Assembly: GCA_038319685.1 (NCBI GenBank)
Contig: JBBQDN010000005.1
Span: 15,277-79,276, forward strand
Direction of reading: 5' to 3'
Source: Candidatus Saccharimonadales bacterium
GTDB lineage: Bacteria > Patescibacteriota > Saccharimonadia > Saccharimonadales > Saccharimonadaceae
DNA: 64,000 nucleotides
The notes below the pieces were generated by a model. It made no database searches. It was not told the origin of the DNA and saw nothing but the letters and a program-made list of their open reading frames with translations. Shown piece after piece: positions 15,708-48,495 of the stretch; position 1 is the first letter of the stretch; each line of letters opens with the position of its first letter. Made by a program: the position numbers and the translations under genes.

Positions 15708-16745
15708 ATGACTCTGTTGCGCCGACTTAAGGTTCAGAACTTTCGTACTCACATCACGATGGACGTGAGTATTCATGACGGCGTGACACTTATTACGGGT
15801 TCGAACGGAAGTGGTAAAACATCACTTATCGAAGCGATCTATATTGCCCTGCGTGGTTCGTCGTTTCGTGGGGTTGATATGGATATTGTTCGGCATAGTA
15901 GCGAGTGGTGGCGGGTCGATCTATTAGATGATGACCAGGCGACCCGCAGTGTAATGTTTGACTCATCGAAATCAACCGGACGTAAACGGTTTATTATCGA
16001 CAGTAAAACGACGTATCGCTTACCTCAAAAACACAAATGGCCGGTTGTATTGTTTGAACCGGATGACCTTCGGTTACTCCATGGCTCACCTGCGCGCCGT
16101 CGATTATTTATTGATCGCTTCATAGGCCAGTTAGACCCACTGTACACGACGGTACTTCATAAATACGAACGAGGACTCAAGCAACGGAATAATTTGCTTA
16201 AAAAGCAGTATATTGCCGATGACGAGCTGTTTGTTTGGGATCTATTACTTAGTGAATATGGTGCAGAGATTATTCAAAAACGAGTTCACTATATTGAATT
16301 ACTACAATCCGAGCTGTCGGACACCTATAATTCAATTGCACATACGGATGATGAGGTGAAAATTCATTATTCACACGACATTACAAGACAAAAACTACTG
16401 AGTGATTTTCATGAACATCACAGTAAAGACAAAGCTATGGGTAATACAAGCGTCGGACCACATCGACACGACATAGACTTTATCTTTAATAGTATGCCTG
16501 CAACGACCGTTGCGTCACGGGGTGAAATACGAAGTGTTGTTCTTGCGCTTAAATTCCTTGAAGTAAAGATTATTGAATCAGGACTTGGCATGAAACCAAT
16601 TATCTTACTTGACGATGTTTACAGTGAACTTGACGAAACACGTCGTCATAAACTTGTCGATAGTATCAAGACATACCAGGTTATTATGACGAACACACAT
16701 GGATTACCAGAAGCGAAAACATATCATCATATTGAACTTGTTTAA
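15708..16745 (+). CDS. recF: DNA replication/repair protein RecF
   Basis: L.V.NFR, Walker A GSNGSGKTSLIEAI, LLDDVYSELD (Walker B/D-loop). Confidence 0.9.
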   Translation: MTLLRRLKVQNFRTHITMDVSIHDGVTLITGSNGSGKTSLIEAIYIALRGSSFRGVDMDIVRHSSEWWRVDLLDDDQATRSVMFDSSKSTGRKRFIIDSKTTYRLPQKHKWPVVLFEPDDLRLLHGSPARRRLFIDRFIGQLDPLYTTVLHKYERGLKQRNNLLKKQYIADDELFVWDLLLSEYGAEIIQKRVHYIELLQSELSDTYNSIAHTDDEVKIHYSHDITRQKLLSDFHEHHSKDKAMGNTSVGPHRHDIDFIFNSMPATTVASRGEIRSVVLALKFLEVKIIESGLGMKPIILLDDVYSELDETRRHKLVDSIKTYQVIMTNTHGLPEAKTYHHIELV

Positions 16746-17419
16746 TTAATAAGAACAGGCAGACCTAGATCGATAGCGTTTACTTTACTCAGTACGTCAT
16801 GAGGAATCTGAGGATATTGTTTTGATGAGAGTGTGACTCCGGGTGGGTTCGTGACGAGTACCCAATTACCTTTTTCTTTTTTCATAACGAACCGCAGGCG
16901 ATCACGGCTAAGGGATTCTTTACCGGTGTAATTAAGCGTACTTCCAAACCATTCACCATGACTATATAACTTTCCTTCGTTTAACGAATAAAGTGTTTTC
17001 AGTGTTGGGCTATCGCGGTCAAGAGCAGCTAATATATCAGGTAATTCAGCTTTGAGCTGTGACATGAGGTATGTATCGCTATAGTCGACATCTATTTTTT
17101 GTGTCACAGGTTTGTCGCCGACAAGTACTCTGATCGTCTTGCTTTTAATACTATCACCAGTTGCTTTGAGTGTATACGTCCCCTTTTTCAGAGTTATTTC
17201 TTTACCCTGTTCAATAACTTGATTGAGTGTTCCAAGCGAACTAGAGATACCCGTATTTGGCTCACCGTTATATAATTCCATTTTTTTCACCAGCGCACTA
17301 TCAAACGTAATAGTAAGTTTTTGAATCGAATTTAAGTAACTCGCATAGATAAGTATTGGCGTCACGATAATGATAAGTACGACGGAGATAATAATTAGTT
17401 TTCGGTATTTATATAACAT
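16742..17419 (-). CDS. bitopic membrane protein, function unknown (last gene of T4SS-like block)
   Basis: N-terminal KLIIISVVLIIIVTPILIYA anchor followed by a ~195-aa soluble domain. 3-nt gap to the upstream gene. Convergent 4-nt overlap with recF. Confidence 0.55.
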   Translation of the reverse strand: MLYKYRKLIIISVVLIIIVTPILIYASYLNSIQKLTITFDSALVKKMELYNGEPNTGISSSLGTLNQVIEQGKEITLKKGTYTLKATGDSIKSKTIRVLVGDKPVTQKIDVDYSDTYLMSQLKAELPDILAALDRDSPTLKTLYSLNEGKLYSHGEWFGSTLNYTGKESLSRDRLRFVMKKEKGNWVLVTNPPGVTLSSKQYPQIPHDVLSKVNAIDLGLPVLIN

Positions 17420-17422
17420 AGC

Positions 17423-17794
17423 TTATTTCTCCAACGGATTCTTGAAATCAATAAATTCAATTTTATAATCGGTAACGTCATATCCCCAGGCTTTTAACTT
17501 TTCAATCGCCACATAACGATAACGTGGTGATGGTGTCCGGATGGTTATGACAATATCATTACTCGTTTCACCAACCGTTTTATAGGCAATTGTATAATAC
17601 GGATCAATGTACGGTAATCGTGTTGTGATTGGATTGTCGTCGATGAATGATGTTCTGACATCAACTGTCGCCGGTGGCTGTGATTTGGACAATAATATCC
17701 CACCAATAACGACAAATATAACTATTCCTCCGATTATTAGTAGCGTAATGAGCCTGCTGTTTTTGTCAATAAAATCTTTTATCATATTCCCCAC
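17423..17794 (-). CDS. bitopic membrane protein, function unknown (T4SS-like block)
   Basis: Single N-terminal TM (LITLLIIGGIVIFVVIGGILL). 1-nt gap to the upstream gene. Confidence 0.55.
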   Translation of the reverse strand: MGNMIKDFIDKNSRLITLLIIGGIVIFVVIGGILLSKSQPPATVDVRTSFIDDNPITTRLPYIDPYYTIAYKTVGETSNDIVITIRTPSPRYRYVAIEKLKAWGYDVTDYKIEFIDFKNPLEK

Positions 17795-17795
17795 C

Positions 17796-18281
17796 TTACA
17801 TATCTACCGAAGGTTCATTTTTAATTGTCTTTGACGTATCATCGTCAATTTTTAGACTAAAATGTGACATATCTATATCTGTTATAGTGACAAATATATA
17901 TTTTTTACTATCAACCTCGCCGAGTCTCACTTTAAAGCTATATACTCTAGTATTCTTGGTATATGTCAGTGATTTTGCGTTAATTGCTACCTGTTTATAG
18001 GTGTTTTTATATGTATCAATGACAGTTGTTTTTAGTAGTGATACAACTTTTTTAGATTGGTGAGAGCCCATTCCTTTATCGATAAGGAGTGAACTTCCAT
18101 ATAGAGAGAATTCACTTGCTTTTTCACCCGATGTTACACCGTTAACGGTGATAATCTGGCCAGTATCAGGATCGAGCGTATCGTAACTGACTTTGAATTT
18201 TGCTTGGTAAATAAAGTATACTCCCAAGGCAGACAAGATGAGGACGAATATAAGGCTAGCTATAATAATATATCGTTTCAT
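17796..18281 (-). CDS. bitopic membrane protein, function unknown (T4SS-like block)
   Basis: Single N-terminal TM (YIIIASLIFVLILSALGVYFI). Tightly packed in the operon. Confidence 0.55.
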   Translation of the reverse strand: MKRYIIIASLIFVLILSALGVYFIYQAKFKVSYDTLDPDTGQIITVNGVTSGEKASEFSLYGSSLLIDKGMGSHQSKKVVSLLKTTVIDTYKNTYKQVAINAKSLTYTKNTRVYSFKVRLGEVDSKKYIFVTITDIDMSHFSLKIDDDTSKTIKNEPSVDM

Positions 18282-18292: not shown

Positions 18293-20668
18293 CTATGGTT
18301 TTATCGCTATCGTTGCACTTCGGAAATCAGACGCGCCGTATATAAGGTTTGGATCCCATGGTTTTTGGTTATAAGCGTCAGTTCCAGAAGATGGTGCTGC
18401 GGAATCACCAATAAGATACTGGCCGTCAGGAGTGATGCCTCGGAGGACGATGAAGTGTCCTGCGGTAGTAAATGGTTTTGCACCAGCACCACTCACGATT
18501 ACCATATTTCCGGCTTTAAGTGCCGCATCGATTGAATCTTTAATACCTGCTGGTGCACCTGTATAGGCGAATAATAGCTGACTTTTCACCCCCCAGTTTT
18601 CCAGAATTCTTGGCATTTGAGCTGCATCATAAGGTGTTGAGTTTGCTTTAATCCATTCTCCGACGATATAAGGATTTATTGACTTGTCTTTCCAGGTTGC
18701 AATCACCATGGCCGGTGCGCTTGCACCACAGGCATTGCCCGCATACGATCCACCAGAATATTCTTTTTGGCCCCACTGCGGGTCGCCTTGGCGATAGAAT
18801 ACAAAATCACCTGCCGCAACACCCGTACCGGTTGTATTTCCTGTGCAGCCCGACGTGGATGCAGTGGTTGAAGTTCCTGCTGAAGTTGGCGCGCCTGGTG
18901 CGATACTCGCGTTATCGACGTAAAGATCATACACTCGTTTTGCTTCGCCACCACGAACACGACGGACATCGCTAGGAGAATCATTTGATTCTTCGTAGCC
19001 ACGGAAATTATCACTCGGAGTTCTGATATTTTCACCTTTGCGTCCATGAATAGTAATTGCCGCTTCGATTGGGTCAGTCTCTGTTTTTAGTATCTCTAAC
19101 ATTTTTGACCACTTTGGGCTATTTATTTCTTCCCATACGAACCCTAATTGACCACCCATGTCGAGCATATTGACCTTTTTTGCTTTCATGAATGCAACGA
19201 GAGGATCTTGCCGTTCTGGGAATGTCCACTGGACTAATCCAAACCCAGTCCCACTTTTTGGAACATAATTTGGATCACTTGTTGTTGTGCTTGGTTGTAC
19301 TGAAGCTGGGTTTAATCCTGATTCTTGGACCATGTTACCTATAAATCCTGAAGCTTGAGCAAGGGTCAACCCATTATTCATAAAGAAACTGAGTATTTTT
19401 TCAGTATTATCCTTACCTGTCAGTGTAATTGATCCTGCTGAACTTGCCGCGCAGCACCCAGCATTATTACTACTTGTGGCGGTAGATACAGGTGTTCCAC
19501 CGCGGAATCGAATTGCATGTTGGTAGGCGGCTTCGATTTTATCAGCCGAAACCTTATCCTTCACTGTTTTGATGACAGCCCCAATATCAGTATTGGTGAA
19601 TAAAGGCATATCAACACCAGCATTCATAGCTGCAGCAACTGCATCAGGGACGGTTAATCCAGAGTAACTTGCCATCGGTGATAAATCGTCAGTGGTAATA
19701 GTGCCTGAAAAACCAACTATTTCACGAAGGTAATTAACCGCTTGGGGATTGATACTGACAGGTGTTGAACCCCATTCATTGATTCGTCCATTACTTAACA
19801 TAACTGCGGCACCATTAAGGTTACCTAGTGTTTTATATGGTTTTAATTGTCCTGTATCTTCGAGGTTTTTGAGACTCTGCGAAGCTGCTTGACCATTATC
19901 AGTGTTTTGTGTAAGATCACCAATACCTGGAAAATGTTTATAGACGGGTTTTACTCCTCCGTTACTAAGCCCCTTCGCAAACGCGCCGGCCTTTTCTGAA
20001 ATCACATCTGGGTTTGTTGACCAAGTTCGATGAGAGGTTGTCATAAAACCAGCAGAATTTTGAATATCAAGGACTGGTGCTAGGTCGACGTTTACTCCAT
20101 TTGCGATTAAAGTAGTGGCGACTTTTTTACCTTGGGCCTCGATATCCGTCGCCGACATACTCGCACCCATATCCTGCGCAGATGGCATATCAGGGACAAA
20201 ACGAGTCACATCTCCACCTTCGTCATCAGCACTAATAAACATCGGCGTACCATTAGTATCATTAAGGGCTTTAAAGAATGCCGGAGTTAATTTAGAGAAG
20301 TCAGCTCCGTTAAAGAATACGCCGCCAATTTTAAAATCAGTCACTGCTTTATTCACTGCTTCGGTCTGAGTTGGGTCGTATCCGACAATAAACGTTTGTG
20401 CGATTTTTTGTTCCGGGGTGATTGTGGCTGGTGCTGCAGTTGCGACACCAGTAGGTGTGGCGGAGCAAGATTTTGCCGTACGGCTATAAGTGAGGATATC
20501 GTTTCCGGAATAAAACGCAGGGTCATCACCTTTTATAATGGGGTCGTCGACAGCATAAGCGACCGCCGGTGTGATTGTTGATATAATAAAAGCGCTCGCA
20601 AGTGTCAAGATGAGAGCTCTTTGTGAGAGTCGTTTAAGAGATAGGACTATTTTTTGAATGGTTTTCAT
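18293..20668 (-). CDS. three-domain cell-wall hydrolase: GH3 (NagZ-like beta-N-acetylhexosaminidase) + lysozyme-like + C39-like/papain-like Cys peptidase
   Basis: Signal/anchor LILTLASAFIISTITPAVAYA. GH3 motifs SADDEGG, DLAPVLD, KHFPGIGD. Central FIGNMVQESGLNP...GFGLVQWT resembles a phage-tail-lysozyme-type motif. C-terminal GNACGASAPAMVIA ... AGHFIVLRGI forms a Cys/His pair. Confidence 0.7.
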   Translation of the reverse strand: MKTIQKIVLSLKRLSQRALILTLASAFIISTITPAVAYAVDDPIIKGDDPAFYSGNDILTYSRTAKSCSATPTGVATAAPATITPEQKIAQTFIVGYDPTQTEAVNKAVTDFKIGGVFFNGADFSKLTPAFFKALNDTNGTPMFISADDEGGDVTRFVPDMPSAQDMGASMSATDIEAQGKKVATTLIANGVNVDLAPVLDIQNSAGFMTTSHRTWSTNPDVISEKAGAFAKGLSNGGVKPVYKHFPGIGDLTQNTDNGQAASQSLKNLEDTGQLKPYKTLGNLNGAAVMLSNGRINEWGSTPVSINPQAVNYLREIVGFSGTITTDDLSPMASYSGLTVPDAVAAAMNAGVDMPLFTNTDIGAVIKTVKDKVSADKIEAAYQHAIRFRGGTPVSTATSSNNAGCCAASSAGSITLTGKDNTEKILSFFMNNGLTLAQASGFIGNMVQESGLNPASVQPSTTTSDPNYVPKSGTGFGLVQWTFPERQDPLVAFMKAKKVNMLDMGGQLGFVWEEINSPKWSKMLEILKTETDPIEAAITIHGRKGENIRTPSDNFRGYEESNDSPSDVRRVRGGEAKRVYDLYVDNASIAPGAPTSAGTSTTASTSGCTGNTTGTGVAAGDFVFYRQGDPQWGQKEYSGGSYAGNACGASAPAMVIATWKDKSINPYIVGEWIKANSTPYDAAQMPRILENWGVKSQLLFAYTGAPAGIKDSIDAALKAGNMVIVSGAGAKPFTTAGHFIVLRGITPDGQYLIGDSAAPSSGTDAYNQKPWDPNLIYGASDFRSATIAIKP

Positions 20669-21156
20669 GAAAGTGCAACCCTTACTTGTGGGGGAAAATT
20701 AGTCGTATCCGGAAACGTTGTTCCTGGACCAGCGACAATGACGAGTCCTCCAGCGGCTGTGCCGTTATCTTTGAGGATGATTTTTGCATCATCAGTTTGA
20801 ACGTTTGTTAGTCTGACGGTTACAATGTACCATGCTGTGACCGGTGACGTAAAGCTGACGATTGTAAAATTAGCTTTCCCTACTGAACTAACAAGTGACA
20901 TTGGAGCTGCTTTTATTATAGCGCTATTTAAATCACTTGCCGTTCGATTCGGATATTGATTTATTTTAATTGGACTATTTTCGACCGATGGAGTGACGGT
21001 AGGTTTGATAACCTCCGGGATTTTATTAGTCGTATCCGTATCGTTCGTCACACCTATTTCAGAGGGTTGTTTCATAAGTATATACCACGTCAGTACACCC
21101 GCTACTGTAAAGATACAGGCACATATACTTATGATTATTTTTGTTCTCGTTATCAT
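20665..21156 (-). CDS. bitopic membrane protein, function unknown (T4SS-like block)
   Basis: N-terminal TM IIISICACIFTVAGVLTWYIL. 4-nt overlaps with both neighbours. Confidence 0.55.
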   Translation of the reverse strand: MITRTKIIISICACIFTVAGVLTWYILMKQPSEIGVTNDTDTTNKIPEVIKPTVTPSVENSPIKINQYPNRTASDLNSAIIKAAPMSLVSSVGKANFTIVSFTSPVTAWYIVTVRLTNVQTDDAKIILKDNGTAAGGLVIVAGPGTTFPDTTNFPPQVRVALS

Positions 21157-24100
21157 GCTGCTACTCCTGATTTTTTAAATCGAAGGACATGTTCCCAAGC
21201 ACCGTACGTTCCACTAGCAGGTCCGATTTGCTTTGGAAAAGCCGTGTCCTGAGTATGTGCCCCAAATTGTTGGAATTTTTGACCCGCAACATCATTCGAC
21301 ACAATAATCTCCGTATGACCACTTCGTAGAAGTATGTCTCCTGGTTTAGCATCGGCCTTTGAAACCTCTACGAAATTGGAATTTCCAAGCATATTTGAGG
21401 TCGCAATACCACCGACGTCGACGCCGAATGCGTCATAGATTGACATACGTATCAGCCCACTACAGTCAACAATCGAATCAGTTCCAGCAACAAACCCACC
21501 GGCATTAAACTTCGTCATAAAATCAGCAGCTGTTCCGTCATGTCCACCACCCCATAAGTAGCCATAATCATCGAATTTAAATGCATGGCAGCTAATTTGC
21601 GCTAGATCATCGGCAGCCAGTGTTTTACAGGCTTCAGGGGCTGTTGCAGATACGGTACTTCCGTCCGCTGTTCCTGCGCCACCTTGAGCACTTGGGTCAA
21701 CTTCCGCATCCATACCGTCATTAATCGGGTTATCTATATTGTAGACGCGGAAGTATTTGTAGTCACCCCCCTCACCGTCGGTCAGACATTCGGCACCAAG
21801 TCCTACACCGTTATTATCGTCAGCTTCATCAGATTCACCCCACCCAGCTTGCCTATCAGTGCATGATTTCTGCCACTGCGCGTAGCGACTGTCAGTAATA
21901 GCTTCGCCAGTATCACCGTTAATTTGCTGATGATCAAGCATGTAATCAACAGCAACTGTTGAATCCATATTTAATTCATCGTTCGGTAGTACATAGCGAA
22001 CATTACAAAAAACATCAGCGTCAATCCCAACATCTTCGTAACCAGAATCAGTACATTTACTAAATCGATCTTCGTTAAAAATCTGTGCAGCATTTGCTTG
22101 TGGAATAATACTACTAAATGCTGTTCCAATAAATGTTGGAATAGTTGTCATAGCTGCCGATACGCTACTCATCGAACCGACGATTGTCGGATTTATTTTA
22201 CGGACCAGCGATCCCATGAAGGAGTATTGTTTTGTAATATCAAATGGTGTATCTTTCGCGTCATATGTTTCTGAGGCAATGTTTTGCTGTTTGACTTCAT
22301 TTGTGGCGGCAAAATATGACTTAAGAGTCTGTTTATTGCCAGGTTGAAGTCCACGTTTTTGTGCAAAACCACCAAGTAACGCACCTCCACCGGCAAACAC
22401 TGCATCGCCCGCATCGACACCTGCTGTGTCATGGTTAACAACCGTACCGGCCACAATATCTGCCAGGGATGCTTCAAGGAACGGCATCGCAAAACCAATA
22501 GCGAGTGAACCACCAACGGATACAATAGTACTAATGCCGAAAGTTCCAATCGAAGAAACCAGACCACCAATCAGACCAATCGTACGCGCCCACCAACTCT
22601 GCACTGTTTTACAGACACTACGAATATTCGCACGTCCTTCTTTAGAGTTACCGCCTCCAGCACCAATAACACCTGCAATAGTATCAAGAACATTTGCGAG
22701 TGTACCAGTTAATCCTCCTCCGACCATATACTGTGCTGAACGTGACGTTAAAGTTGGCGCTTCATTATAGGCTGCTACTTTGTAGCCCGGTGAGTCAAGT
22801 GCATTCTTGCCGTAGAATGGGTTTTCTGTTTGTTTTGTTTGAATAACGCCAGATGAGTCGGCACCTGTAATTGTTGACTCATCAGTTGCATACTTAGTTG
22901 TATCGACGGCGGTTAGTTTTTTACCGATATAATTAGCTTCTGTATCTGTCGCATCACCTGCTTTGATGGAATCTGCAAAATTAAAAAACACCATCGCAAA
23001 CTGCGCAAGTTGTATGGCGCGGGTAATTTTTGCGGCCGCTGCAACAGCACGTGCAGTGTTATACACAGTACAGGCAGTATCAGCTGCTCCTGTAATAGAT
23101 AGTCCTTTAAAGCCTGCTTTTAACACTCCACCCGTTGCTTTCTTTCCAGCACCAGCTATATCATTAATATGCCCCACTTGACCTGGATTGCTAGCAATTT
23201 CAGTAAACCTCGGGTTGGCGGTTCCGTCAGGGAGATTTTCGTATACTTTATCAGTTCCGTCAAGATAATATTTGCCGTTACTATCTTCTTGGACAACGCT
23301 CGCTTTATCGACAAGTCCCGTAAAAGCTTTATCACCCGCGGTGGCGTTATCGACTGCTTTGTTTCGTTCTTCATCCGTCGCACCTACGACCTTTTTTGAT
23401 TTATCCGTTTTAAAATTCGCAAACATTTTTTTAGCAATTGAATCCGAAAACCCTGCGAACTTAGGATTATATGCTTTATGGAGTGCACTTCTGAGGCCAG
23501 GGTCTGTCTTCGCTAATCTTGTTAATTCTCCCGGATCACCCATTCTTTTTCCATCGGGTGTCGTCAAACCCGTAACTTTACTTCGTCCAGGAATTGGGCT
23601 ATTTTCTCTTTCTACTTTAAAACCAGCCTTTTCAAACTTTGAAATCTGTCTGTTTGACATAGAAGTAAATTTACAGCGAATTTTTACTCCCGTACAAACA
23701 CTTAGTTTTGGCGAAAGTCCGCTAAGTCGTGCACGGAGCACATGATCAGAACGAAAGTCCATTGCAGTTAGTTGATCATCCAAATCACCCATAATCGTTT
23801 CTTTTAGTTGTACAGGTAAGATCGAAAGACTCGTGAAAGCAAAGAATCCGCCGCCGCCGAATAACAAGGCGAGAATGAAACCAGTTGCACCCTTTTTTTT
23901 GAAAACTTTTGAAATATTACTAAAATTCAAACGGTTATTTGAGGCAGGTGCGCCACCTGCTGTGGTTGAATTTTTCCACCCGCCGGTATTCTCTTCTTTA
24001 TCTTTGGCATCATTGCGATTTTTATTGCCATCACCGTCGTATTTACTGGACTGATTTGATTTTTTACCAGATCCAGAATCGGAACTATCACCACTATCAT

Positions 24101-24245
24101 GGTTCGCTGGGTCATTGGCAAATGCCTCGGCGTCATCAGTACCTTGTTTTGCGTAGGCGTCGGGGAACTGTTCGGCAGCTTGAACCTCGCCGGGATTGTA
24201 GGCGGCATCTTGTTCTTCTTTGGTATCGTTAGTTCTCAGAGCCAT
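21153..24245 (-). CDS. 1030-aa membrane protein with C-terminal NlpC/P60 peptidoglycan endopeptidase domain
   Basis: Acidic disordered N-terminus (~110 aa). TM segments GFILALLFGGGGFFAFTSL and IGLIGGLVSSIGTFGISTIVSVGGSLAIGFAMPF. C-terminal DCSGLIRMSIYDAFG ... GDILLRSGHTEIIV is the NlpC/P60 Cys-His pattern. Confidence 0.7.
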   Translation of the reverse strand: MALRTNDTKEEQDAAYNPGEVQAAEQFPDAYAKQGTDDAEAFANDPANHDSGDSSDSGSGKKSNQSSKYDGDGNKNRNDAKDKEENTGGWKNSTTAGGAPASNNRLNFSNISKVFKKKGATGFILALLFGGGGFFAFTSLSILPVQLKETIMGDLDDQLTAMDFRSDHVLRARLSGLSPKLSVCTGVKIRCKFTSMSNRQISKFEKAGFKVERENSPIPGRSKVTGLTTPDGKRMGDPGELTRLAKTDPGLRSALHKAYNPKFAGFSDSIAKKMFANFKTDKSKKVVGATDEERNKAVDNATAGDKAFTGLVDKASVVQEDSNGKYYLDGTDKVYENLPDGTANPRFTEIASNPGQVGHINDIAGAGKKATGGVLKAGFKGLSITGAADTACTVYNTARAVAAAAKITRAIQLAQFAMVFFNFADSIKAGDATDTEANYIGKKLTAVDTTKYATDESTITGADSSGVIQTKQTENPFYGKNALDSPGYKVAAYNEAPTLTSRSAQYMVGGGLTGTLANVLDTIAGVIGAGGGNSKEGRANIRSVCKTVQSWWARTIGLIGGLVSSIGTFGISTIVSVGGSLAIGFAMPFLEASLADIVAGTVVNHDTAGVDAGDAVFAGGGALLGGFAQKRGLQPGNKQTLKSYFAATNEVKQQNIASETYDAKDTPFDITKQYSFMGSLVRKINPTIVGSMSSVSAAMTTIPTFIGTAFSSIIPQANAAQIFNEDRFSKCTDSGYEDVGIDADVFCNVRYVLPNDELNMDSTVAVDYMLDHQQINGDTGEAITDSRYAQWQKSCTDRQAGWGESDEADDNNGVGLGAECLTDGEGGDYKYFRVYNIDNPINDGMDAEVDPSAQGGAGTADGSTVSATAPEACKTLAADDLAQISCHAFKFDDYGYLWGGGHDGTAADFMTKFNAGGFVAGTDSIVDCSGLIRMSIYDAFGVDVGGIATSNMLGNSNFVEVSKADAKPGDILLRSGHTEIIVSNDVAGQKFQQFGAHTQDTAFPKQIGPASGTYGAWEHVLRFKKSGVAA

Positions 24246-24257: not shown

Positions 24258-26153
24258 TTATACGCTATATTCGCCAGGGTTCATGTAGCCAGAATTTGCA
24301 ACTGGTGTCCCCGTGGTCGGCGGTTGATTAGTTGGTTTAACACTATCGGCAGGATTGGTTGAAATGAGATTTTGTTCGGTCTGGGAGGGGACGATTTGAA
24401 TATGGACGTGGTTCTGTCCGGCAAAGAACAACCCCTGTCCAACCGGGAAATTCGCAAGGCGTTTTCGTTCTTCTTCGGTTAATTTAAATACATCTGACAA
24501 AACATCGACAGCACTAGACGATTGTTTTAATAGTAACTGCATCGATGAGTTGGCGACGATTGCCCGACCCATTTTGCTGCCCATGAAATCTTCGACATCT
24601 TGAGTGATCGTGGTGAGTCCGAGGTAATATTTACGGGCACGTTTTGCCAGGCTGAACAAGAAGTTCGCAGAATCATCATATTTCATCAATTGCCACGCTT
24701 CATCGACGATGAGCATGCGCTTTTTCTGAACTGAACGGCAAATATTCCAGATGTGTGACAGGACGATATACATAGCGACTGGACGAAGTTCGTCTTCGAG
24801 GTCACGAATATTGAATACCACCATATTATTATTGATATCGATATTTGATTGCTGGCTAAATATACCAGCAAATGTTCCTGATGTGTATTTACGAAGGCGC
24901 TGTGCCAGTGCAGGACCAGTCCCGCCCATATGAAGGAGTGTATCGTAAAGGTCGGAAATAGTTGGCGGCAGTGAGTTATGGGTTAATGGATCACTCGTAA
25001 TACCGGCACGGGCATAGGTATCAATAAGTCCTTGGTCAAGGTCGGCTTCTTCGGCAGGGGTGAGGGCTGACATCGCCTGCCCTGCGGCGGTTGTTTGCGT
25101 CCCACCAAGCATGAGTCTAAGAAGGCCGTGAAGTGTAACAAGGTTGGCACGGAGGGCGTCATCAGCTTCGTCACTGTCGATCACTCGTGGCAGGTCAAAC
25201 GGGTTAATACGAGTATCGGCGTTCAGACTAAGACGGATGTAGCTGCCACCGACGGCATCACAGAGTTTTTGGTACTCGTTTTCGGGGTCGATGATCAATA
25301 TTTCTGAACCGACCATCATGCTACGGAGGGCCTCAAGTTTAATCGTAAACGATTTACCTGCACCAGATTTTGCAAACACCACCATATTTGCGTTTTCCAG
25401 AGAGAAACGGTCGAAAATAACCAGGCCATTATTATGCATATTAATACCGTACAGCACACCTTTTTCCTGAGTCAGATCGGCGCTGGTAAATGGAAAACTC
25501 GTACTGATCGCACCGGTGTTCATGTTACGACGAATTTGCAGCTGATCGGTCATTTGTGGCACGGTACTATTTAAACCTTGTTCTTGTTGACTACTGGCGA
25601 CCTTACTGAAAATAAGTTGTTGACCAAATAACGTTTCAATTTTGTGTTGTACGAAACTCAGTTCATCAAGGCTGTCGGCGTATAAAGTAACGTAAAGTCC
25701 ATATCGAAAGAATCGTTCTGACCCAACCTGTAGTTCATCGCGCAGTTCCTCGGCGTCCTGTAGGGCTGCTTCGAGTCCAGGATCACGCGTACGACCCTTT
25801 TCGTTGTTGATCGACATGGTTGCTTCGAGCTGCGTTACTTTTTTACGGAGGTTCTGTAATACAACTTGGCTTTCGACCGGATAAATAAACATACTAATAT
25901 CGAGCACTTCGTCGATATTGATTAATGAACTAAGCCATCCAGTGTAAATTTGGCGGGGATAACCATAGATATATAGCGTTCGGCCATATTTTGTTCCGAG
26001 TCGGAAATGACTTGAATGAATTTCGAGACTGCTCGGTGCAATTAGGTCGCGGAGTGTTGTCATGCCCTTTAAAAAGGCTTGTTCGATTTCGGCTTGTTCG
26101 CGTGCACGCTGCTGAGCAGCGATATCAATAGGATCGAGCTGTTTTTTAGCCAT
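24258..26153 (-). CDS. virB4: VirB4-family T4SS ATPase (Gram-positive TrsE/PrgJ/TcpF type)
   Basis: Walker A VFAKSGAGKSFT, Walker B RMLIVDEAWQL, GLTTITQDVEDF, N-terminal YGYPRQIYTGWL pattern. Follows a PrgI-like gene. Confidence 0.85.
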   Translation of the reverse strand: MAKKQLDPIDIAAQQRAREQAEIEQAFLKGMTTLRDLIAPSSLEIHSSHFRLGTKYGRTLYIYGYPRQIYTGWLSSLINIDEVLDISMFIYPVESQVVLQNLRKKVTQLEATMSINNEKGRTRDPGLEAALQDAEELRDELQVGSERFFRYGLYVTLYADSLDELSFVQHKIETLFGQQLIFSKVASSQQEQGLNSTVPQMTDQLQIRRNMNTGAISTSFPFTSADLTQEKGVLYGINMHNNGLVIFDRFSLENANMVVFAKSGAGKSFTIKLEALRSMMVGSEILIIDPENEYQKLCDAVGGSYIRLSLNADTRINPFDLPRVIDSDEADDALRANLVTLHGLLRLMLGGTQTTAAGQAMSALTPAEEADLDQGLIDTYARAGITSDPLTHNSLPPTISDLYDTLLHMGGTGPALAQRLRKYTSGTFAGIFSQQSNIDINNNMVVFNIRDLEDELRPVAMYIVLSHIWNICRSVQKKRMLIVDEAWQLMKYDDSANFLFSLAKRARKYYLGLTTITQDVEDFMGSKMGRAIVANSSMQLLLKQSSSAVDVLSDVFKLTEEERKRLANFPVGQGLFFAGQNHVHIQIVPSQTEQNLISTNPADSVKPTNQPPTTGTPVANSGYMNPGEYSV

Positions 26154-26980
26154 TAGACTGTCTCCTCGCCAGCAACACCAAGCCGTGGAGCTTCGCCTTG
26201 ACCTTTACGAACATAGGTACTGGTCACGGCTTCAAAGTTACCGAGTGGTTCACGAACAGCAGTGTCGGGATTGTACATGTTGTAGTATAGTTCACCTAAT
26301 TCTTTGGTATTAAGCTGAATGCAGCGGACGCCGATTTGAAATAGTCCGCTCATGACTGAATCGGTCCGGTTTTTAATCTCATCTTTGGCTTTGTCGTATG
26401 ACGCTTTGTCAATTTTTGTTGCGCTGACTGTTTGTTTTGCAAACACTTTACCGAAAAATCCCTTACCTTGTTCAACAATATTCGTCAGGTCACCCGCTGG
26501 GAAAAATGGTATGATAACAAAAAAACTCTTGTCCATAATATTTGCTTCTTGGGACAAGATATCGATAAAGTTAATATAGTCATCCATCAGGACGTTTAAA
26601 AGCATATTGTCTTGTGATTTACGAATCATCGACAACCGGTCGATGTATGGGCCAATATCAACGCGCTGTGACCGAATAAAGATTTGTACGGGGAAATACA
26701 GCGCGTTAAGGAAGTTCTGATAGCTAAACTCAACACCTTCGCGTTCACGACTACTCATGAGGTCAAAGTTAATTGACTTACACGCGATGACCGACCTGAA
26801 ACTACCATCGTTCATAATCACCATCCCATCACGGATTTCAGATATCAGCAAACTACTCTGGGTAGAATTTTGCCCAGTTTGTTTTTTGACGACTTCTTCC
26901 TTGTCCTGTCCAGTAGTTGGCACGTTTGCGACAGGCGCAGTCGATGCTTGACCCGGAATTGGTTGATTATTTGGCGGCAC
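26153..26980 (-). CDS. soluble 275-aa protein, possibly VirB4 N-terminal-domain-like; function unknown
   Basis: No TM. The pattern IRDGMVIMNDGSFRSVIACKSINFDLMSSREREGVEFSYQNFLNALYFPVQIFIRSQRVD recalls the non-ATPase N-domain of VirB4/TraC proteins (from memory, unverified). Its stop overlaps the virB4 ATG (TAATG). Confidence 0.3.
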   Translation of the reverse strand: MPPNNQPIPGQASTAPVANVPTTGQDKEEVVKKQTGQNSTQSSLLISEIRDGMVIMNDGSFRSVIACKSINFDLMSSREREGVEFSYQNFLNALYFPVQIFIRSQRVDIGPYIDRLSMIRKSQDNMLLNVLMDDYINFIDILSQEANIMDKSFFVIIPFFPAGDLTNIVEQGKGFFGKVFAKQTVSATKIDKASYDKAKDEIKNRTDSVMSGLFQIGVRCIQLNTKELGELYYNMYNPDTAVREPLGNFEAVTSTYVRKGQGEAPRLGVAGEETV

Positions 26981-27013: not shown

Positions 27014-28042
27014 CTATCGCAGTGATATTACTACTTCATCGTCATGATGTTCTTGTTTTTGACGAATTCGATGAGCTTCGTGTGCGATTGTCTCTATAGA
27101 GAGATCAGAGTTACTTGCAAGGCTTATTATATCAGGAGAGACGTGATTCTCGCTAGTTTTCGTTTCAGTGATTTGCGCGACGGGTGTGGGGCGTGTAACA
27201 GCAGCCTGTGTTGGTCGTGAGACGGCTGTTTGGGGTTGGCTGGCGATTACAGTAGACTGTGGGACAGTGGCCCCTCCGAGTGGCTGTATGACGGTCTGGC
27301 GGATTGCACTTGGGTATGGGTCGAACACGACGTGAGGGTCACTCGCTGGTTGTGCGACGGGAGTCGGGGGGGTGAGCGCAGTGTAGGGATTTGGAATAAC
27401 AACAGGTTCTGGCTGAGGTGTCATAACAGGTGCTGGTTGAATCGCGGATTGGTGCATTTGATTAATCATGTCCTGGCGACGTTTGACGTCAGCTTGACCG
27501 ATCATATTATTAAATGACTGCGATACCTTGGCGTCGTCATCGAGGACATCTTCGGTTTGTTGAGCGGCGAAAAACATATCAGTCACCATTGAATTGTCTG
27601 GACCTGTTGGCATCGGCACGCCACGAACTGCCCAGCCCCCACTATCAACCACACTTGCCAGGTATGAAAGTCTTTTTTGTGCTTCGTTTTGTGAAATATT
27701 TTTCGTACGTTGAATTTCAACTACCTTTGGCGCGGTAATTTCGACCAATGATTGAATACCATCTGGTTCCCATAACCTTCGACGGGGTTTTAAATAAAAC
27801 GACACAATCGCTGCCAGATAAATTTCCATCGGCTGATCTTTGCGCAGCGGCAGTGCTAGTGCACCAAAAAACAGGATGATCGGTAGCGGGATAACCGCTA
27901 GTGGGATGAATAACTGTGCCAGCCCCCACGCTAGCCCACCAGATATCGCAACAATAATTAAATAAATAAATTGGCGAAAGCTAAACGGCCCGATGAGTTT
28001 GTCATCAGCTTCAACATCTTGAGGTACTTTATAGACCGCCAT
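27014..28042 (-). CDS. PrgI/VirB3-like T4SS membrane protein with long P/Q/T/V-rich C-terminal extension
   Basis: MAVYKVPQDVEADDKLIGPFSFRQFIYLIIVAISGG followed by a second TM matches the PrgI-family N-terminus. Positioned upstream of virB4. Confidence 0.6.
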   Translation of the reverse strand: MAVYKVPQDVEADDKLIGPFSFRQFIYLIIVAISGGLAWGLAQLFIPLAVIPLPIILFFGALALPLRKDQPMEIYLAAIVSFYLKPRRRLWEPDGIQSLVEITAPKVVEIQRTKNISQNEAQKRLSYLASVVDSGGWAVRGVPMPTGPDNSMVTDMFFAAQQTEDVLDDDAKVSQSFNNMIGQADVKRRQDMINQMHQSAIQPAPVMTPQPEPVVIPNPYTALTPPTPVAQPASDPHVVFDPYPSAIRQTVIQPLGGATVPQSTVIASQPQTAVSRPTQAAVTRPTPVAQITETKTSENHVSPDIISLASNSDLSIETIAHEAHRIRQKQEHHDDEVVISLR

Positions 28043-31100: not shown

Positions 31101-31208
31101 ATTATCCACGGGGGCCGCAAGTGCGAGATTCGATAGAGAAATAGTACTAATAACCGTCGAAACGATCATCAAAAGTGCAAGTAGTGAGTACTTTATTTTT
31201 GTCTTCAT
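28167..31208 (-). CDS. giant VirB6/TrbL-like polytopic T4SS channel protein, paralogue 1
   Basis: I chose ATG 31208 (MKTKIKYSLLALLMIVSTVISTISLSNLALA signal; AAGG RBS). It has a ~370-aa Cys-rich ectodomain, the motif CAIDGIGWIVCPV, at least 6 TM helices, and a ~400-aa helical/low-complexity C-tail. Confidence 0.6.
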   Translation of the reverse strand: MKTKIKYSLLALLMIVSTVISTISLSNLALAAPVDNVSIDDQANAFIYYRALAACAKTAPFRPVGNTYNISAGDVANGSWFSVDHYVSTGIIRNGDAGQHGGTSYCDQPGFISSALAAFGYSGKTEAFCDLFSNADVKRTNGSPCGDGGSGDFSVSSDTGKRLDSVKRAIEIKYYGGAGNPGPPGYLEYYIGKATFEMYCADKIKSVATATTDEKAGAIAVAIITDAGAREDWLYKPKADISFNTDKIYTYGLENGDGNNPTCAQIKVLMMDPNVDAYAAWYATHKPVTCKDQYPRDAIGLAACDAGFVHKSDPAYCDITYPVSSSSDPDIPGNTACKFGATKAAGGADGIITTNPTVDNTKDNPTTCAIDGIGWIVCPVLKFMAGIVDGAYGIVASLLTVQPVVTGSTGIYNAWSAMRNISNVVFVIVFLIIIFSQVTSVGITNYGIKKMLPRLVAAAILVNISFWICSIAVDASNIIGTSVNGVFKGLAGSLTVPDSATINGASTGGSGWLGLTTAAVIAGAAVLYITLSALLPALIVALLAIVTVFVVLTVRQALIVLLIVISPLAFVAFLLPNTESLFKKWRGLFQTMLLMFPIIGLMFGASALASQVIISTASSQASSPPYIVAIQIMGALVAIVPLALTPIIMKAAGGVLGKVGAFVNNPNKGPFDRMKKGARGFADDQKTRRGIRALDENKWSMPGRGAALKRRGRIDTQRSGRTDQLKDLQNEAILKKAVKDPEFAASVAGANAVGYQARAQGQLNKIDKEKVENEEFLLKAKFEPHQLVAGLQTELSNAIATANDTGQSEQVRSAAGNRARAAAGILTSQTGAKGVAALRETLSTSNPGTDTELGQSLRKDISSAGIKGKDAGLDAWSRTAPGTSLTDESSKASTWSGLSHEQIAGQTESAIQSAASSGGLTGETAAAVLGNEKISAGMGTKEKAALQSIADISARAKGEANYVSDVDSAQQTAIDHAGRLRETGRETNIEIAHEDASMQNALHDMENRNNNGS

Positions 31209-35496: not shown

Positions 35497-35904
35497 ATGA
35501 GCCTAAAACAAACAATAAAGATGTCACTACTAGGTACGGTCACCCTGGGTATAATTGGCCTATCGATTGGGACTACTCCGGCATTGGCACAGAGTCAGTG
35601 TGGTAAGGTAAATACTGCGATTATCACCTGTAGTCAACGAGAAACTGGTGACCTCAAAGACAGTGGTGTTTGGGGTATATTGATACTAGTCATTAATATT
35701 ATGACCGCCGGAATTGGTATATTGGCTGTTGGGGCGATTGCCTATGGGGCTATTTTGTATTCAACCGCCGGTGGAAGTGCTGAACAAACGAAAAAAGCAA
35801 TTACTGTTATTACAAATACGGTGATTGGGCTGGTTTGTTTTCTCTTTATGACCGCGATCCTTAATTTCCTGATTCCGGGAGGGATATTTAATGTCATACC
35901 GTAA
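35497..35904 (+). CDS. VirB2/TrbC-like T4SS pilin paralogue P1
   Basis: Signal ...IGTTPALA, a Cys pair (QSQCGKVNTAIITC), then a two-TM hairpin with loop YSTAGGSAEQTKKA. Confidence 0.55.
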   Translation: MSLKQTIKMSLLGTVTLGIIGLSIGTTPALAQSQCGKVNTAIITCSQRETGDLKDSGVWGILILVINIMTAGIGILAVGAIAYGAILYSTAGGSAEQTKKAITVITNTVIGLVCFLFMTAILNFLIPGGIFNVIP

Positions 35905-36595
35905 CGTCACCGTAAAATCACGAATTAAGAACTGGGTACTTGCCATATTTTTTGTTGCATCAACCGGGGGTGCACTGGTGACAACTGCCCTGCCTCAAAC
36001 GGCAAGCGCTGCATGTGCGACAAGTTTTTTCGGGATTCCCGCTTGGTATGACGGAATGATCGGTGGTGATTGTAGGGTGCTTGACCCGTCAAGTTTCCCC
36101 GGAGGTTTGTCGGGATTTATTTGGAGGATTGTCCTGAATGTTGTCGAGATTATTTTACTGGTGTCTGGCTATGTTGCTGCCGCGTTTATAATTGTTGGTG
36201 GGTTTAAATATATTACCAGTGCTGGATCGCCGGATGATTCAGTAAAAGCCAGAAAAACAATCATTAATGCAGTGATTGGGTTGGTGCTTTCGATGTCGTC
36301 GGTGGCGATTGTCAATGTCGTCACAACAACTGTTGTGGGTGGAGTAGATGCGACGGGCATTCCGACAATCAGTGCGGACGGCGTAACACTTGCTGCTATC
36401 CTTAACGCAGTGTATTTCTGGGCGGGTGCAATTGCCGTGCTGATGATCGCTATTGGCGGACTACTGTATGTTGTATCGGGGGGTACTGCGAGCAATATCA
36501 CCAAAGCAAAAGATACAATTATTTATGCATCGGTCGGGCTTATCATTATTATTATGGCGTTTACGATAACACAAGTCGTCATAGGAAGGTTTTAA
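35891..36595 (+). CDS. tandem double-domain VirB2/TrbC-like pilin P2
   Basis: Signal ...LPQTASA, a Cys pair, then two consecutive hairpin modules: GGFKYITSAGSPDDSVKARKTIINAVIG and GGLLYVVSGGTASNITKAKDTIIYASVG. Confidence 0.55.
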   Translation: MSYRNVTVKSRIKNWVLAIFFVASTGGALVTTALPQTASAACATSFFGIPAWYDGMIGGDCRVLDPSSFPGGLSGFIWRIVLNVVEIILLVSGYVAAAFIIVGGFKYITSAGSPDDSVKARKTIINAVIGLVLSMSSVAIVNVVTTTVVGGVDATGIPTISADGVTLAAILNAVYFWAGAIAVLMIAIGGLLYVVSGGTASNITKAKDTIIYASVGLIIIIMAFTITQVVIGRF

Positions 36596-36596
36596 T

Positions 36597-36965
36597 ATGA
36601 AAAAAATGAAACAATATGTCATGATGTTTGCGCTGGCCACGTGCCTGGCGGTTAGTGCTATTGCACCTGTTTACGCAGTAAACGTATTCCCTGCCTGTTC
36701 GGTTGATCCTGGGTCTGAGGTTTGTAAGGCGGCTGGAACCGACAGAGCCGACAGTACGATAAAAACCGTGATTAATACAGTCATTTATATTATCGGTATT
36801 GCGGCGGTCATCATGATTGTTATCGGTGGCCTGCGCTATGTTTTGTCGGGTGGTGATTCATCGGGAACTAAAGGTGCGAAGGATACGATCTTGTACGCAG
36901 TTATTGGTCTGGTGATCGCTATTCTGTCGTTTTCGATTGTTAACTTTGTCGTTGGGAGATTTTAA
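36597..36965 (+). CDS. VirB2/TrbC-like T4SS pilin paralogue P3
   Basis: Signal ...IAPVYA, Cys pair ACSVDPGSEVC, and hairpin IGGLRYVLSGGDSSGTKGAKDTILYAVIG. GGAAGG RBS. Confidence 0.6.
   Translation: MKKMKQYVMMFALATCLAVSAIAPVYAVNVFPACSVDPGSEVCKAAGTDRADSTIKTVINTVIYIIGIAAVIMIVIGGLRYVLSGGDSSGTKGAKDTILYAVIGLVIAILSFSIVNFVVGRF
36799..36857 (+). repeat. 59-nt tract identical to 37196-37254 (pilin P3 vs P4)
   Basis: By eye, ttgcggcggtcatcatgattgttatcggtggcctgcgctatgttttgtcgggtggtgat is identical in both genes. A 3-nt indel follows, then high identity continues. Confidence 0.85.
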
Positions 36966-36966
36966 T

Positions 36967-37365
36967 ATGAAAGTAATAAAAAGGAAGTATATGAAAAAAC
37001 TACAGATGATTATTGTGAGCTTCGTTGCATTATTTGCGATTGGTGCGGGAAGTTTAGTACTTAGTCCACAAACGAGCTATGCAACTCCGGCGGATGAAAT
37101 CAAAAAAGGCGTGACGAATGTTGGTGGCGGCACCAGTGGAACGCTTGACGCGGGTATCAAAAATGCCATCAACGTGATCCTGTATGTCACCGGTGTTGCG
37201 GCGGTCATCATGATTGTTATCGGTGGCCTGCGCTATGTTTTGTCGGGTGGTGATAGTTCATCGACCAAAGGTGCGAAGGATACAATTCTGTATGCTGTAG
37301 TGGGACTTATCGTGGCGATTATCGCGTATGCGATTGTTAACTTTGTCGTCGGTGCGTTTAGCTAG
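36967..37365 (+). CDS. VirB2/TrbC-like T4SS pilin paralogue P4
   Basis: Start is ATG 36967 or 36991 (both have an RBS). Signal ...PQTSYA, no Cys pair, hairpin IGGLRYVLSGGDSSSTKGAKDTILYAVVG. Confidence 0.6.
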   Translation: MKVIKRKYMKKLQMIIVSFVALFAIGAGSLVLSPQTSYATPADEIKKGVTNVGGGTSGTLDAGIKNAINVILYVTGVAAVIMIVIGGLRYVLSGGDSSSTKGAKDTILYAVVGLIVAIIAYAIVNFVVGAFS

Positions 37366-37409
37366 CCCCGTAAACTAACATATTCAGGAAAGCATAAGCC
37401 AAATGGCTA

Positions 37410-37438
37410 TTAACAAATAGCGCCCAATCTGCTATAAA
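37410..37438 (+). promoter_or_regulatory. sigma70-like promoter for pilin P5
   Basis: TTAACA (37410-37415), 17-nt spacer, TATAAA (37433-37438). An AAGAAAGGAA RBS precedes ATG 37473. Confidence 0.35.
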
Positions 37439-37472
37439 CTAAAGAGAGTAAATCCTAAGAAAGGAATTAAAA

Positions 37473-37880
37473 ATGAAACGAACATTAAAGAAAATAGCTC
37501 AGAGCCTCCTTCTGGTTCCAGTTGTTGCACTTGGTGTAAGCCTGGCGCTTCCAGCCGTTGCCCCAACAAACGCGAACGCCGCATTCAATGGCGGTATCAG
37601 CAACGGTGCAGCTGACAGTAAAGGTACTGGCCAACAAGATAATCTTGATGGTACGGATGGTGTGTTTAAAACCGTCACAAACGTGATGCTGTACATCATT
37701 GGTGCGATTTCTGTCATCATGTTGATCATCGGTGGTATCCGCTATGTGGTATCAGGTGGTGAAAGCAGTGCAGTTACCGGTGCAAAAAACACCATTCTGT
37801 ATGCGGTTATCGGTATTATCGTTGCGATCATTGCGTACGCACTGGTCAACTTCGTTATTACAAGTTTCTCAGCACCATAG
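37473..37880 (+). CDS. VirB2/TrbC-like T4SS pilin paralogue P5
   Basis: Signal ...PTNANA and hairpin IGGIRYVVSGGESSAVTGAKNTILYAVIG. Confidence 0.6.
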   Translation: MKRTLKKIAQSLLLVPVVALGVSLALPAVAPTNANAAFNGGISNGAADSKGTGQQDNLDGTDGVFKTVTNVMLYIIGAISVIMLIIGGIRYVVSGGESSAVTGAKNTILYAVIGIIVAIIAYALVNFVITSFSAP

Positions 37881-48485: not shown

Positions 48486-48495
48486 TACAAAATCC

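Follow-up and report, generated by a model that had tools for sequence, protein, structure and literature searches.

Multidomain cell wall hydrolases anchored by a transmembrane (TM) segment are encoded in type IV secretion system (T4SS) operons of Gram-positive bacteria, examples being PrgK, which has a TM segment and an intracellular domain in addition to LytM, muramidase and CHAP domains, TraG, which carries SLT and CHAP domains, and Orf14 (PMC12857230). A T4SS is also essential for the epibiotic growth of Saccharibacteria, where its role has been described as "completely unknown" (PMC11665869), and how these bacteria cross the thick walls of actinobacteria, and whether the host is lysed physically or chemically, are open questions (PMC11880426). 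Neither a relaxase nor a coupling protein has been reported for the Saccharibacterial T4SS (PMC10633639), which is therefore probably not conjugative. Here, a pair of wall-hydrolase genes was examined in a 64,000-nucleotide stretch of a Candidatus Saccharimonadales genome (assembly GCA_038319685.1, contig JBBQDN010000005.1, positions 15,277 to 79,276), referred to below as the window. With moderate confidence, the pair is read as the wall-cutting module of a chromosomal Gram-positive-type T4SS that lies beside the Saccharibacterial replication origin.

The closest described counterparts are found in Candidatus Southlakia epibionticum ML1, whose T4SS comprises SEML1_0006-0019 (Wang et al. 2023, PMC10633639). 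In the supplementary tables of that study SEML1_0006 is annotated with PF01832 (GH73 glucosaminidase), PF18013 and a cysteine-proteinase fold, and SEML1_0007, of 1113 amino acids (aa), with a C-terminal Hedgehog/DD-peptidase fold. The two genes directly follow virB4 (SEML1_0008) and both were essential by transposon sequencing (Tn-seq) (PMC10633639), and they go undiscussed in the Cell paper's main text. The peptidase and lysozyme genes of S. epibionticum have since been considered likely VirB1 substitutes, VirB1 profiles being rarely found near virB4 in most classes of Patescibacteria (PMC12102498). No SLT family was found by Pfam in the proteins of the window.

Genomic context and conservation of the hydrolase pair

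Both hydrolase genes were confirmed on the minus strand, at 18293-20668 (791 aa) and 21153-24245 (1030 aa), within a tightly packed run of open reading frames (ORFs) that extends from 35543 down to 16742 in the ORF list. A 163-aa ORF between them shares 4-nt start/stop overlaps with each (21153-21156 and 20665-20668), indicating translational coupling with both neighbours. A total of 81 homologues was found for the 791-aa protein, which is thus a real gene product and not a chance ORF, and the 95 homologues of the 1030-aa protein establish the same for its gene. The closest named relatives come from metagenome-assembled genomes of Candidatus Saccharimonadales. A profile of the 1030-aa family matched 1078 representatives of 50%-identity clusters at E<=1e-30 (among 1.84 billion). 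The first-pass annotation of this DNA, made from the sequence alone, had placed the pair inside a T4SS operon, and this is borne out by the genes for VirB4, TrsD/TraC-like and PrgI proteins and pilins that flank it. The setting is that of the VirB1/PrgK-type class of hydrolases, i.e. a T4SS cluster with VirB4, VirB3 and VirB6 components alongside. Beyond the operon follow recF-dnaN-dnaA and then rnpA, yidC and jag, placing the T4SS operon at the replication origin.

The same order was observed in three diverse loci (L002-L004), where TrbL_3 (VirB6-like), PrgI, TraC-like and VirB4 genes and the gene for a protein of ~1000 aa are followed by an optional ~165-aa protein, a GH3/lysozyme2/X protein, recF, dnaN and dnaA. 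Across species-representative Saccharibacteria genomes, this order recurred in at least 15, with a GH3(+lysozyme2) gene 3-4 kb downstream of VirB4 and beside recF-dnaN (tblastn on the genome-scan loci). The S. epibionticum genes occupy the same position, downstream of virB4 and upstream of recF-dnaN-dnaA. In SEML1_0006, too, Phage_lysozyme2 shares a chain with a glucosaminidase-type domain and a Cys proteinase, and SEML1_0007 is likewise a protein of ~1100 aa with a C-terminal peptidase. The differences lie in the first module of SEML1_0006, which is GH73 (PF01832) in place of the GH3 of the window, in the Hedgehog/DD-peptidase (M15-type) end of SEML1_0007 in place of NlpC/P60, and in the extra 163-aa gene between the pair in the window. 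The hydrolase pair is a conserved Saccharibacterial feature, already on record through its essential orthologues. This conservation and essentiality had been missed by the first-pass annotation, as had the variant GH3 motif and the module swaps described below.

PrgK (pCF10), TraG (pIP501), Orf14 (Tn916) and CwlT (ICEBs1) resemble the window proteins in being T4SS-operon-encoded and in having an N-terminal intracellular part, a TM anchor and several extracellular wall-hydrolase domains, including a papain-fold CHAP or NlpC/P60 domain. In contrast, none of the four matches the 1030-aa body in sequence or fold, none has a GH3 module, and the lytic modules of the window are split over two proteins. 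Genes of pCF10 run in the order prgH-I-J-K, and the 163-aa ORF of the window sits where pCF10 has the VirB8-like PrgL. The window pair belongs to the T4SS-associated multidomain wall hydrolases, a known kind. It does unite glycan-cleaving with peptide-cleaving modules, as first proposed, and the accompanying claim of far more lytic capacity than that of VirB1 or PrgK was overstated, the comparison being one of four modules on two proteins with two or three modules on one.

The 791-aa protein: putative export signal, lysozyme and peptidase domains

According to Pfam and synteny, the 791-aa protein (18293..20668, minus strand) is a predicted exported wall hydrolase with a GH3 domain, a gp13-type lysozyme domain and a C39-like Cys peptidase domain. 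All three had been suggested by the first-pass annotation and all three exceeded their Pfam thresholds when checked with domain profiles. The single N-terminal signal or anchor also proposed there was recovered in the hydropathy scan at residues 1-39 (20552..20668), where a K/R-rich n-region precedes a hydrophobic stretch at 18-36. The N-terminus looks like a Sec signal, with a putative cleavage site between AYA and VD.

The middle domain (residues 420-541; 19046..19411) matched Phage_lysozyme2 (PF18013, the type of the phi29 gp13 N-domain) with E=9.2e-25 and 87.9 bits, above the cut-off of 28.2. When aligned to the gp13 structure 3csr (E=3e-6), E449 corresponds to gp13 Glu45 and Q458 to Gln54, the two residues for which catalytic roles have been suggested (PMC10394673). 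Of the 60 sequences that have a residue at this alignment position, 58 retain E449. The phi29 tail lysin gp13 (3csr, 3csq) is comparable in family and in the conservation of both residues, and it too carries lysozyme and peptidase on one chain and pierces the wall from outside. It differs in its M23 partner and in being part of a virion, whereas the window lysozyme has GH3 and Cys peptidase partners and stands in a T4SS context with no prophage. Assignment of the gene to a prophage or phage tail was considered and rejected, as the NCBI name "phage tail tip lysozyme" derives from PF18013 and the gene stands in a chromosomal T4SS that is conserved beside dnaA.

The third domain (residues 624-756; 18401..18799) matched Peptidase_C39_2 (PF13529) at 35.4 bits against a cut-off of 24. 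The oxyanion Gln Q627, C647 and H738 occur in this order and are invariant in 9 sequences. A sequence search against the PDB returned nothing meaningful for this domain. Foldseek with the AlphaFold2 (AF2) model returned papain-fold matches only, to staphopain, a papain-like CdiA toxin, Alr0975 and a deubiquitinase, and these were weak (best E=1.5e-3, TM-score 0.3-0.4), the model itself having a predicted local distance difference test (pLDDT) value of 66 and low confidence around the catalytic Cys. The fold class and the catalytic residues are thus supported, and the genomic context suggests peptidoglycan as the substrate. An ABC transporter domain, as would be expected of a bacteriocin-processing C39 protein, was not found by Pfam in the 791-aa protein, which is a wall hydrolase of a T4SS operon and has only the fold in common with such peptidases.

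A GH3 domain with a variant acid/base motif

The N-terminal (beta/alpha)8 domain of the 791-aa protein (residues 86-381; 19526..20413) matched Glyco_hydro_3 (PF00933) with E=3.8e-44. Its score of 151.8 bits exceeds the cut-off of 27, and the match extends over positions 3-309 of the 316 in the profile. The best solved relatives were 4yyf and the mycobacterial lipoprotein LpqI (6gfv), with E about 1e-33, and the Bacillus subtilis lipoprotein YbbD/NagZ (3bmx) was also matched. D148, E150, R214, K244, H245 and the nucleophile D327 are invariant across 64-65 aligned family members. Canonical NagZ enzymes share the motif K-H-[FI]-P-G-[HL]-G-x(4)-D-[ST]-H. The window protein instead reads KHFPGIGDLTQ-N255-T256-D257, compared with KHFPGHGxxxxD-S-H in NagZ, and the segment from KHFPG to the acid/base motif aligned without gaps to 4yyf and 6gfv. 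The Asp-His acid/base dyad, ascribed to NagZ by Litzinger 2010 as cited in PMC6987092, is accordingly absent. The position of the acid/base His is occupied by Asp in 63 of 64 GH3 family members, and at the dyad partner position the 64 members have Asn (50), Asp (7) or His (5) in most cases. The NCBIfam NagZ score also fell below its cut-off (99.7 bits vs 207). The domain is a member of GH3 that lacks the canonical NagZ dyad motif.

The N-T-D variant is also present in PDB 5bu9, and most of the free-standing GH3 genes returned by a genome scan as nearest non-Saccharibacterial relatives have it, mostly in Actinomycetota, the scan pattern ([PV][VT][YF]KHFPG[ILF]) being biased toward this variant. 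Such free-standing KHFPGxGxxxxNTD genes (L021, L023-L083) were seen in dozens of Microbacterium species, Actinomyces timonensis and Nocardiopsis, and some occur in Chloroflexia and Dormiibacterota. The N-T-D clade, in which Asp stands where NagZ has its catalytic His, is widespread in the Actinomycetota genomes scanned, and no biochemical characterization of it was found in the literature. The conservation of the His-to-Asp change in 63 of 64 family members, together with the many free-standing actinobacterial genes, argues for a working variant. The possibility of a dead pseudo-enzyme was rejected, as the nucleophile and binding residues are invariant and the substitution is itself conserved. 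Judged from these alignments, the domain is a conserved and probably active enzyme of a NagZ-like sub-clade in which a carboxylate replaces the catalytic His.

The first-pass annotation regarded a secreted GH3 enzyme as unusual on the ground that NagZ is normally cytoplasmic, which does not hold, since extracytoplasmic NagZ is normal in monoderms, as with LpqI and the extracytoplasmic NagZ described from B. subtilis (PMC6987092). LpqI (6gfv), 4yyf and YbbD/NagZ (3bmx) resemble the window domain as GH3 barrels located outside the membrane with conserved nucleophile and sugar-binding residues. They differ in having the KHFPGHGxxxxD[ST]H dyad where the window has N255-T256-D257, and in being single-domain proteins without fusion to other lytic domains. 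What is unusual is the fusion of GH3 into a T4SS hydrolase. Among the 72,556 plasmids of PLSDB no record matches the 791-aa protein over more than about 42% of its length, the listed matches spanning the GH3 region alone, and the architecture, found in no PLSDB plasmid, appears to be new.

The 1030-aa protein

The 1030-aa protein (21153..24245, minus strand), in the PrgK position, consists of a disordered N-terminus, a TM segment, a conserved Cys-rich body of ~700 aa and a C-terminal peptidase. Residues 1-115 are of low complexity and disordered. The internal TM segments of the first-pass annotation correspond to two hydrophobic regions. The first is a predicted TM segment at residues ~119-145 (23811..23891), modelled by AF2 as a helix, and the second is a Gly-rich hairpin at residues ~556-599 (22449..22580), modelled as two low-pLDDT helices, which may enter the membrane a second time. 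The 57 homologues compared share eight invariant Cys residues, which flank the hairpin on both sides and suggest that both flanks are extracytoplasmic. This pattern fits an extracytoplasmic, disulfide-bonded body. The AF2 model has 345 residues at pLDDT >= 90 and is confident for much of the body. A match of the body was sought by tblastn against the PLSDB plasmids and none was obtained, and phmmer against the PDB gave a chance antibody match only. A phage tape-measure-like protein had been suspected and was not borne out by sequence and Foldseek searches.

The C-terminal domain (residues ~870-1025; 21171..21638) was assigned to the NlpC/P60/CHAP superfamily of peptidases by profile and fold searches. 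The first-pass annotation had named an NlpC/P60 end, a view upheld by these two approaches and not by Pfam, in which NLPC_P60 (PF00877) scored 18.7 bits, below the threshold of 23, over profile positions 9-61 of 105. A profile built from seven orthologous C-termini matched the NlpC/P60 structure 6b8c (E=7.6e-6) and also CwlO and MepS. In Foldseek searches of the AF2 model against PDB and BFVD the C-terminal domain alone was matched, with the CHAP endolysin 8xyf at probability 0.99 and with CHAP or "morphogenesis protein 1 hydrolase" models of BFVD at probability 1.0. C928 (in DCSG), H977 (in GHTE) and H997 are invariant, giving Cys-His-His in triad order. Based on the profile match and the predicted fold, the domain is assigned to the NlpC/P60-CHAP superfamily; at the curated threshold it does not qualify for the Pfam family. 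The first-pass interpretation had been made to depend on the presence of catalytic residues in the pair; on alignment all four nucleophiles or catalytic acids are present, with the GH3 acid/base as a conserved substitution.

Module exchange on conserved scaffolds

Clustering of tails by BLAST divided the C-terminal ~160-220 residues of the 1030-aa family into at least seven unrelated classes, i.e. M23 (35 members), VanY/M15 (12), an M15-like class (H...D...HxH) without a Pfam match (12), CHAP (9), the NlpC/P60-like class that includes the window protein (7), other (6) and C39_2 (1). A neighbour-joining (NJ) tree of the conserved body, with 57 sequences in 8 classes, requires no fewer than 23 changes of class, compared with 7 if each class were monophyletic. 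In the 791-aa family the third module is C39_2, Amidase_3, M15_4, M23, VanY, CHAP, Amidase_2 or PF26571, with at least 12 changes over 34 sequences on an NJ tree. Neither tree was bootstrapped and both counts are indicative only. The first module is GH3, GH73 (S. epibionticum) or absent (P0062, P0066, P0069), and the middle module is replaced once by an Rpf-like transglycosylase (P0031). Catalytic modules have thus been swapped repeatedly on conserved scaffolds, an observation that appears to be new. The interchange of GH73 (endo-glucosaminidase) and GH3 (exo-glucosaminidase type) suggests that the first position is selected for cleavage between GlcNAc (N-acetylglucosamine) and MurNAc (N-acetylmuramic acid). 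The window itself presents a new module combination, with N-T-D GH3, gp13-type lysozyme and C39-like domains on one protein and NlpC/P60 on the other.

Additional domains were observed in both families. Exo_endo_phos (PF03372; DNase I / sphingomyelinase-type) stands beside an M23 or CHAP tail in 13 of the 95 homologues of the 1030-aa protein (P0139, P0141, P0144-P0146, P0148, P0150, P0153, P0154, P0156, P0157, P0166, P0167). These homologues could act as T4SS-tethered extracellular nucleases or phosphodiesterases in organisms unable to make nucleotides. In both families some members carry SGNH/GDSL esterase domains (PF13472; P0032, P0045, P0051, P0052, P0063; L004 6684-10004). These may remove O-acetyl groups from peptidoglycan and so make the glycan ready for lysozyme.

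Proposed function and alternative explanations

If the T4SS uses the pair as its wall-cutting module, the 1030-aa protein, encoded directly after VirB4 in the PrgK position, would be anchored by its TM segment with the ~115 N-terminal residues in the cytoplasm. Outside the membrane a conserved, disulfide-rich, mostly helical body would lead to a Cys-His-His peptidase tip of NlpC/P60 type, cutting peptide stems or cross-links. The protein is probably part of the T4SS machine; it follows VirB4 as PrgK does and has a PrgK-like layout of cytoplasmic N-terminus, TM segment and extracellular hydrolase. The 791-aa protein would be exported by Sec as a free enzyme with three catalytic units, of which GH3 would attack the GlcNAc-beta-1,4 bond from the chain end, the gp13-type lysozyme would cut the MurNAc-beta-1,4 bond and the papain-fold peptidase would be the third. 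Local cleavage of both sugar bonds and of the peptide part would then let the T4SS channel and the VirB2-like pilus pass the wall. We infer that the T4SS depends on the pair and that at minimum the wall of the producer would be cut; given the turnover of modules, action on the host wall is also plausible.

Several points weigh against this assignment. The enzymatic activity of both proteins and their topology are predictions from sequence. Without the Asp-His dyad of NagZ the chemistry of the GH3 domain is uncertain, and an exo-acting glucosaminidase is of no obvious help in opening a hole. In the 1030-aa protein, the N-terminal region and body (~860 aa) had no match in Pfam, NCBIfam, PHROGs, PDB, BFVD or PLSDB, so that position is what argues for a machine subunit, and the peptidase domain falls short of the curated Pfam threshold. 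Finally, essentiality by Tn-seq in co-culture cannot separate T4SS assembly from cell division or host attack.

A tentative alternative, for which we would give clearly less credence, is that the main substrate of the pair is the actinobacterial host wall at the contact site, which is breached and harvested. The peptidase modules would be matched to the peptidoglycan chemotype of the host, and GH3 would free GlcNAc or strip GlcNAc decorations, feeding the auxotrophic epibiont or exposing host glycan. The repeated replacement of peptide-cleaving modules on conserved scaffolds resembles target-driven diversification in phage lysins. This argument is tempered by the variable hydrolase domain content of ordinary conjugative T4SSs, where the donor wall is cut (PMC12857230), and by the unbootstrapped NJ trees on which the module changes were counted. 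NagZ-type GH3 enzymes act from chain ends, as is typical of muropeptide salvage (LpqI, YbbD) and not of hole-making, yet some members of the 791-aa family have no GH3, so the core function cannot be GlcNAc harvest. That the 791-aa protein would be a free Sec-exported enzyme, and that some homologues add SGNH/GDSL esterase or Exo_endo_phos domains, also accords with action on a host. Rapid turnover of the peptide-cleaving modules, a salvage-type GH3 and the extra domains together lean toward a foreign and variable target, and the host wall was therefore kept as a rival substrate. Consistent with this are the description of the T4SS role in Saccharibacteria as completely unknown (PMC11665869) and the tubular T4SS-like structures that OT8, another cultivated parasitic bacterium, directs toward the host envelope (bioRxiv 10.64898/2026.06.21.733656).

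In its fullest form this alternative describes a modular dismantling kit coupled to the T4SS of the epibiont. That the enzymes are kept in place where the cells touch by conserved scaffolds, while swappable peptidases and amidases help to set the host range, is a speculative proposal, possible and yet rather unlikely. Selection of the M23, M15/VanY, CHAP, NlpC/P60, C39 and Amidase_2/3 modules for the host peptidoglycan chemotype is similarly doubtful. Equally tentative is the suggestion that the N-T-D GH3, whose nearest non-Saccharibacterial relatives were found mostly in actinobacteria, frees GlcNAc or strips decorations of the host wall. Homologues with Exo_endo_phos or SGNH domains would widen the range of targets to include O-acetyl groups as well as nucleic acids or lipids. 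Xanthomonas X-Tfes are wall-degrading enzymes that depend on the type IV coupling protein, have their secretion domain at the C-terminus and are injected into the periplasm of the target. As bacteria-killing T4SS effectors (Souza et al. 2015, cited in PMC7427843), they offer a functional analogy for host targeting only, in that a T4SS is linked to enzymes directed against another bacterium. The 791-aa enzyme differs in its putative Sec signal, and the Saccharibacterial T4SS in having no reported coupling protein.

A third explanation, that the two proteins are housekeeping autolysins, perhaps the main wall hydrolases of a cell with so small a genome, serving growth, budding and daughter separation and merely adjoining T4SS genes near oriC, would account for the essential S. 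epibionticum orthologues (expected of sole autolysins), for a near-oriC location that may favour high expression (PMC12102498) and for module variability, which autolysins show too, but it is improbable given translational coupling in an operon, with VirB4 on one side and more conserved small membrane proteins on the other, and a gene order with VirB4 that is kept across distant Saccharibacteria, to which are added the parallel with PrgK in architecture and position and a large conserved 1030-aa body that would be superfluous in an autolysin.

As the sole parts of this T4SS with predictable chemistry, the hydrolases are its most direct experimental handle. Should the swappable peptidase modules turn out to follow the wall chemistry of the host, host range in this large and uncultured group would have its first molecular determinant, and the modules could guide the choice of hosts for growing epibionts in culture. 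The shuffling of modules in related loci makes this hypothesis testable. Should only the producer's own wall be opened, the pair would be an ordinary, though elaborate, VirB1 equivalent.

A FemAB-family gene was also identified in the window (62743-63777, plus strand; E=6.8e-34), suggesting an interpeptide bridge in the peptidoglycan of the organism itself. Such a bridge bears on which peptidase modules could cut the organism's own wall.

Other genes of the T4SS operon and the window

The gene immediately upstream of that for the 1030-aa protein encodes a VirB4-type ATPase of 631 aa (24258..26153, minus strand; Pfam P-loop_TraG; NCBIfam conju_CD1110, E=6.6e-110). It is preceded by a TrsD/TraC-like protein of 275 aa (26153-26980, minus strand), recognized by Pfam and NCBIfam and with PF26593 recorded on syntenic genes. 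VirB4 is thus made as two proteins, an N-terminal TrsD/TraC-like part and an ATPase, the coordinates of which share one base. A frameshift artefact was ruled out, as the arrangement of a TraC-like protein and a VirB4 of ~610-640 aa is identical in L002-L004. Further upstream on the same strand, a PrgI/VirB3-like protein of 342 aa (27014-28042) was identified by Pfam and NCBIfam, and a TM scan indicated two polytopic VirB6-like proteins of 1026 aa (28167-31247) and 943 aa (32712-35543) with a 425-aa bitopic protein between them. Each polytopic protein has at least seven hydrophobic segments. Neither had a direct Pfam match, and TrbL_3 is recorded on their syntenic counterparts in L002-L004. The two look like extended VirB6-like subunits of one system. 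The S. epibionticum counterparts of this upstream part of the operon, SEML1_0011 and SEML1_0013, are annotated in Table S2 of PMC10633639.

The 163-aa protein encoded between the hydrolase genes (20665..21156, minus strand) is bitopic according to the ORF list and TM scan, with a TM segment at residues 7-25, and had no Pfam match. L002 and L003 likewise have an ORF of 163-168 aa between the hydrolase genes, and tblastn of other loci gave no relative of the 163-aa ORF. The operon ends with three small bitopic proteins of 161, 123 and 225 aa (16742..18281, minus strand; ORF list and TM scan), convergent with recF. The first of these (17796-18281), downstream of the 791-aa gene, is matched at 33% identity by the 168-aa ORF that L003 (9487-9993) has in the position of the 163-aa ORF. 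Paralogy of the 163-aa and 161-aa proteins of the window was considered and dropped, as their comparison showed no similarity. SEML1_0004 and SEML1_0005, the S. epibionticum counterparts of the small operon-end proteins, were scored essential in the tables of PMC10633639.

Divergent from the operon is an array of five VirB2-like pilin genes (35497..37880, plus strand) encoding proteins of 135, 234, 122, 142 and 135 aa. Pfam T4SS_pilin was matched at 35891-36595, and the other members are similar in TM pattern. The 234-aa member, with roughly double the TM segments of a usual pilin, looks like the product of a fusion or duplication. Elsewhere in the window, seven consecutive ORFs on the minus strand (47082-57147; 467, 900, 238, 353, 357, 348 and 339 aa) had no Pfam match at E<=1e-5. 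At 42653-43420 on the plus strand, a protein of baeRF_family10, a bacterial homologue of archaeo-eukaryotic release factors, adjoins a Crp-type regulator.

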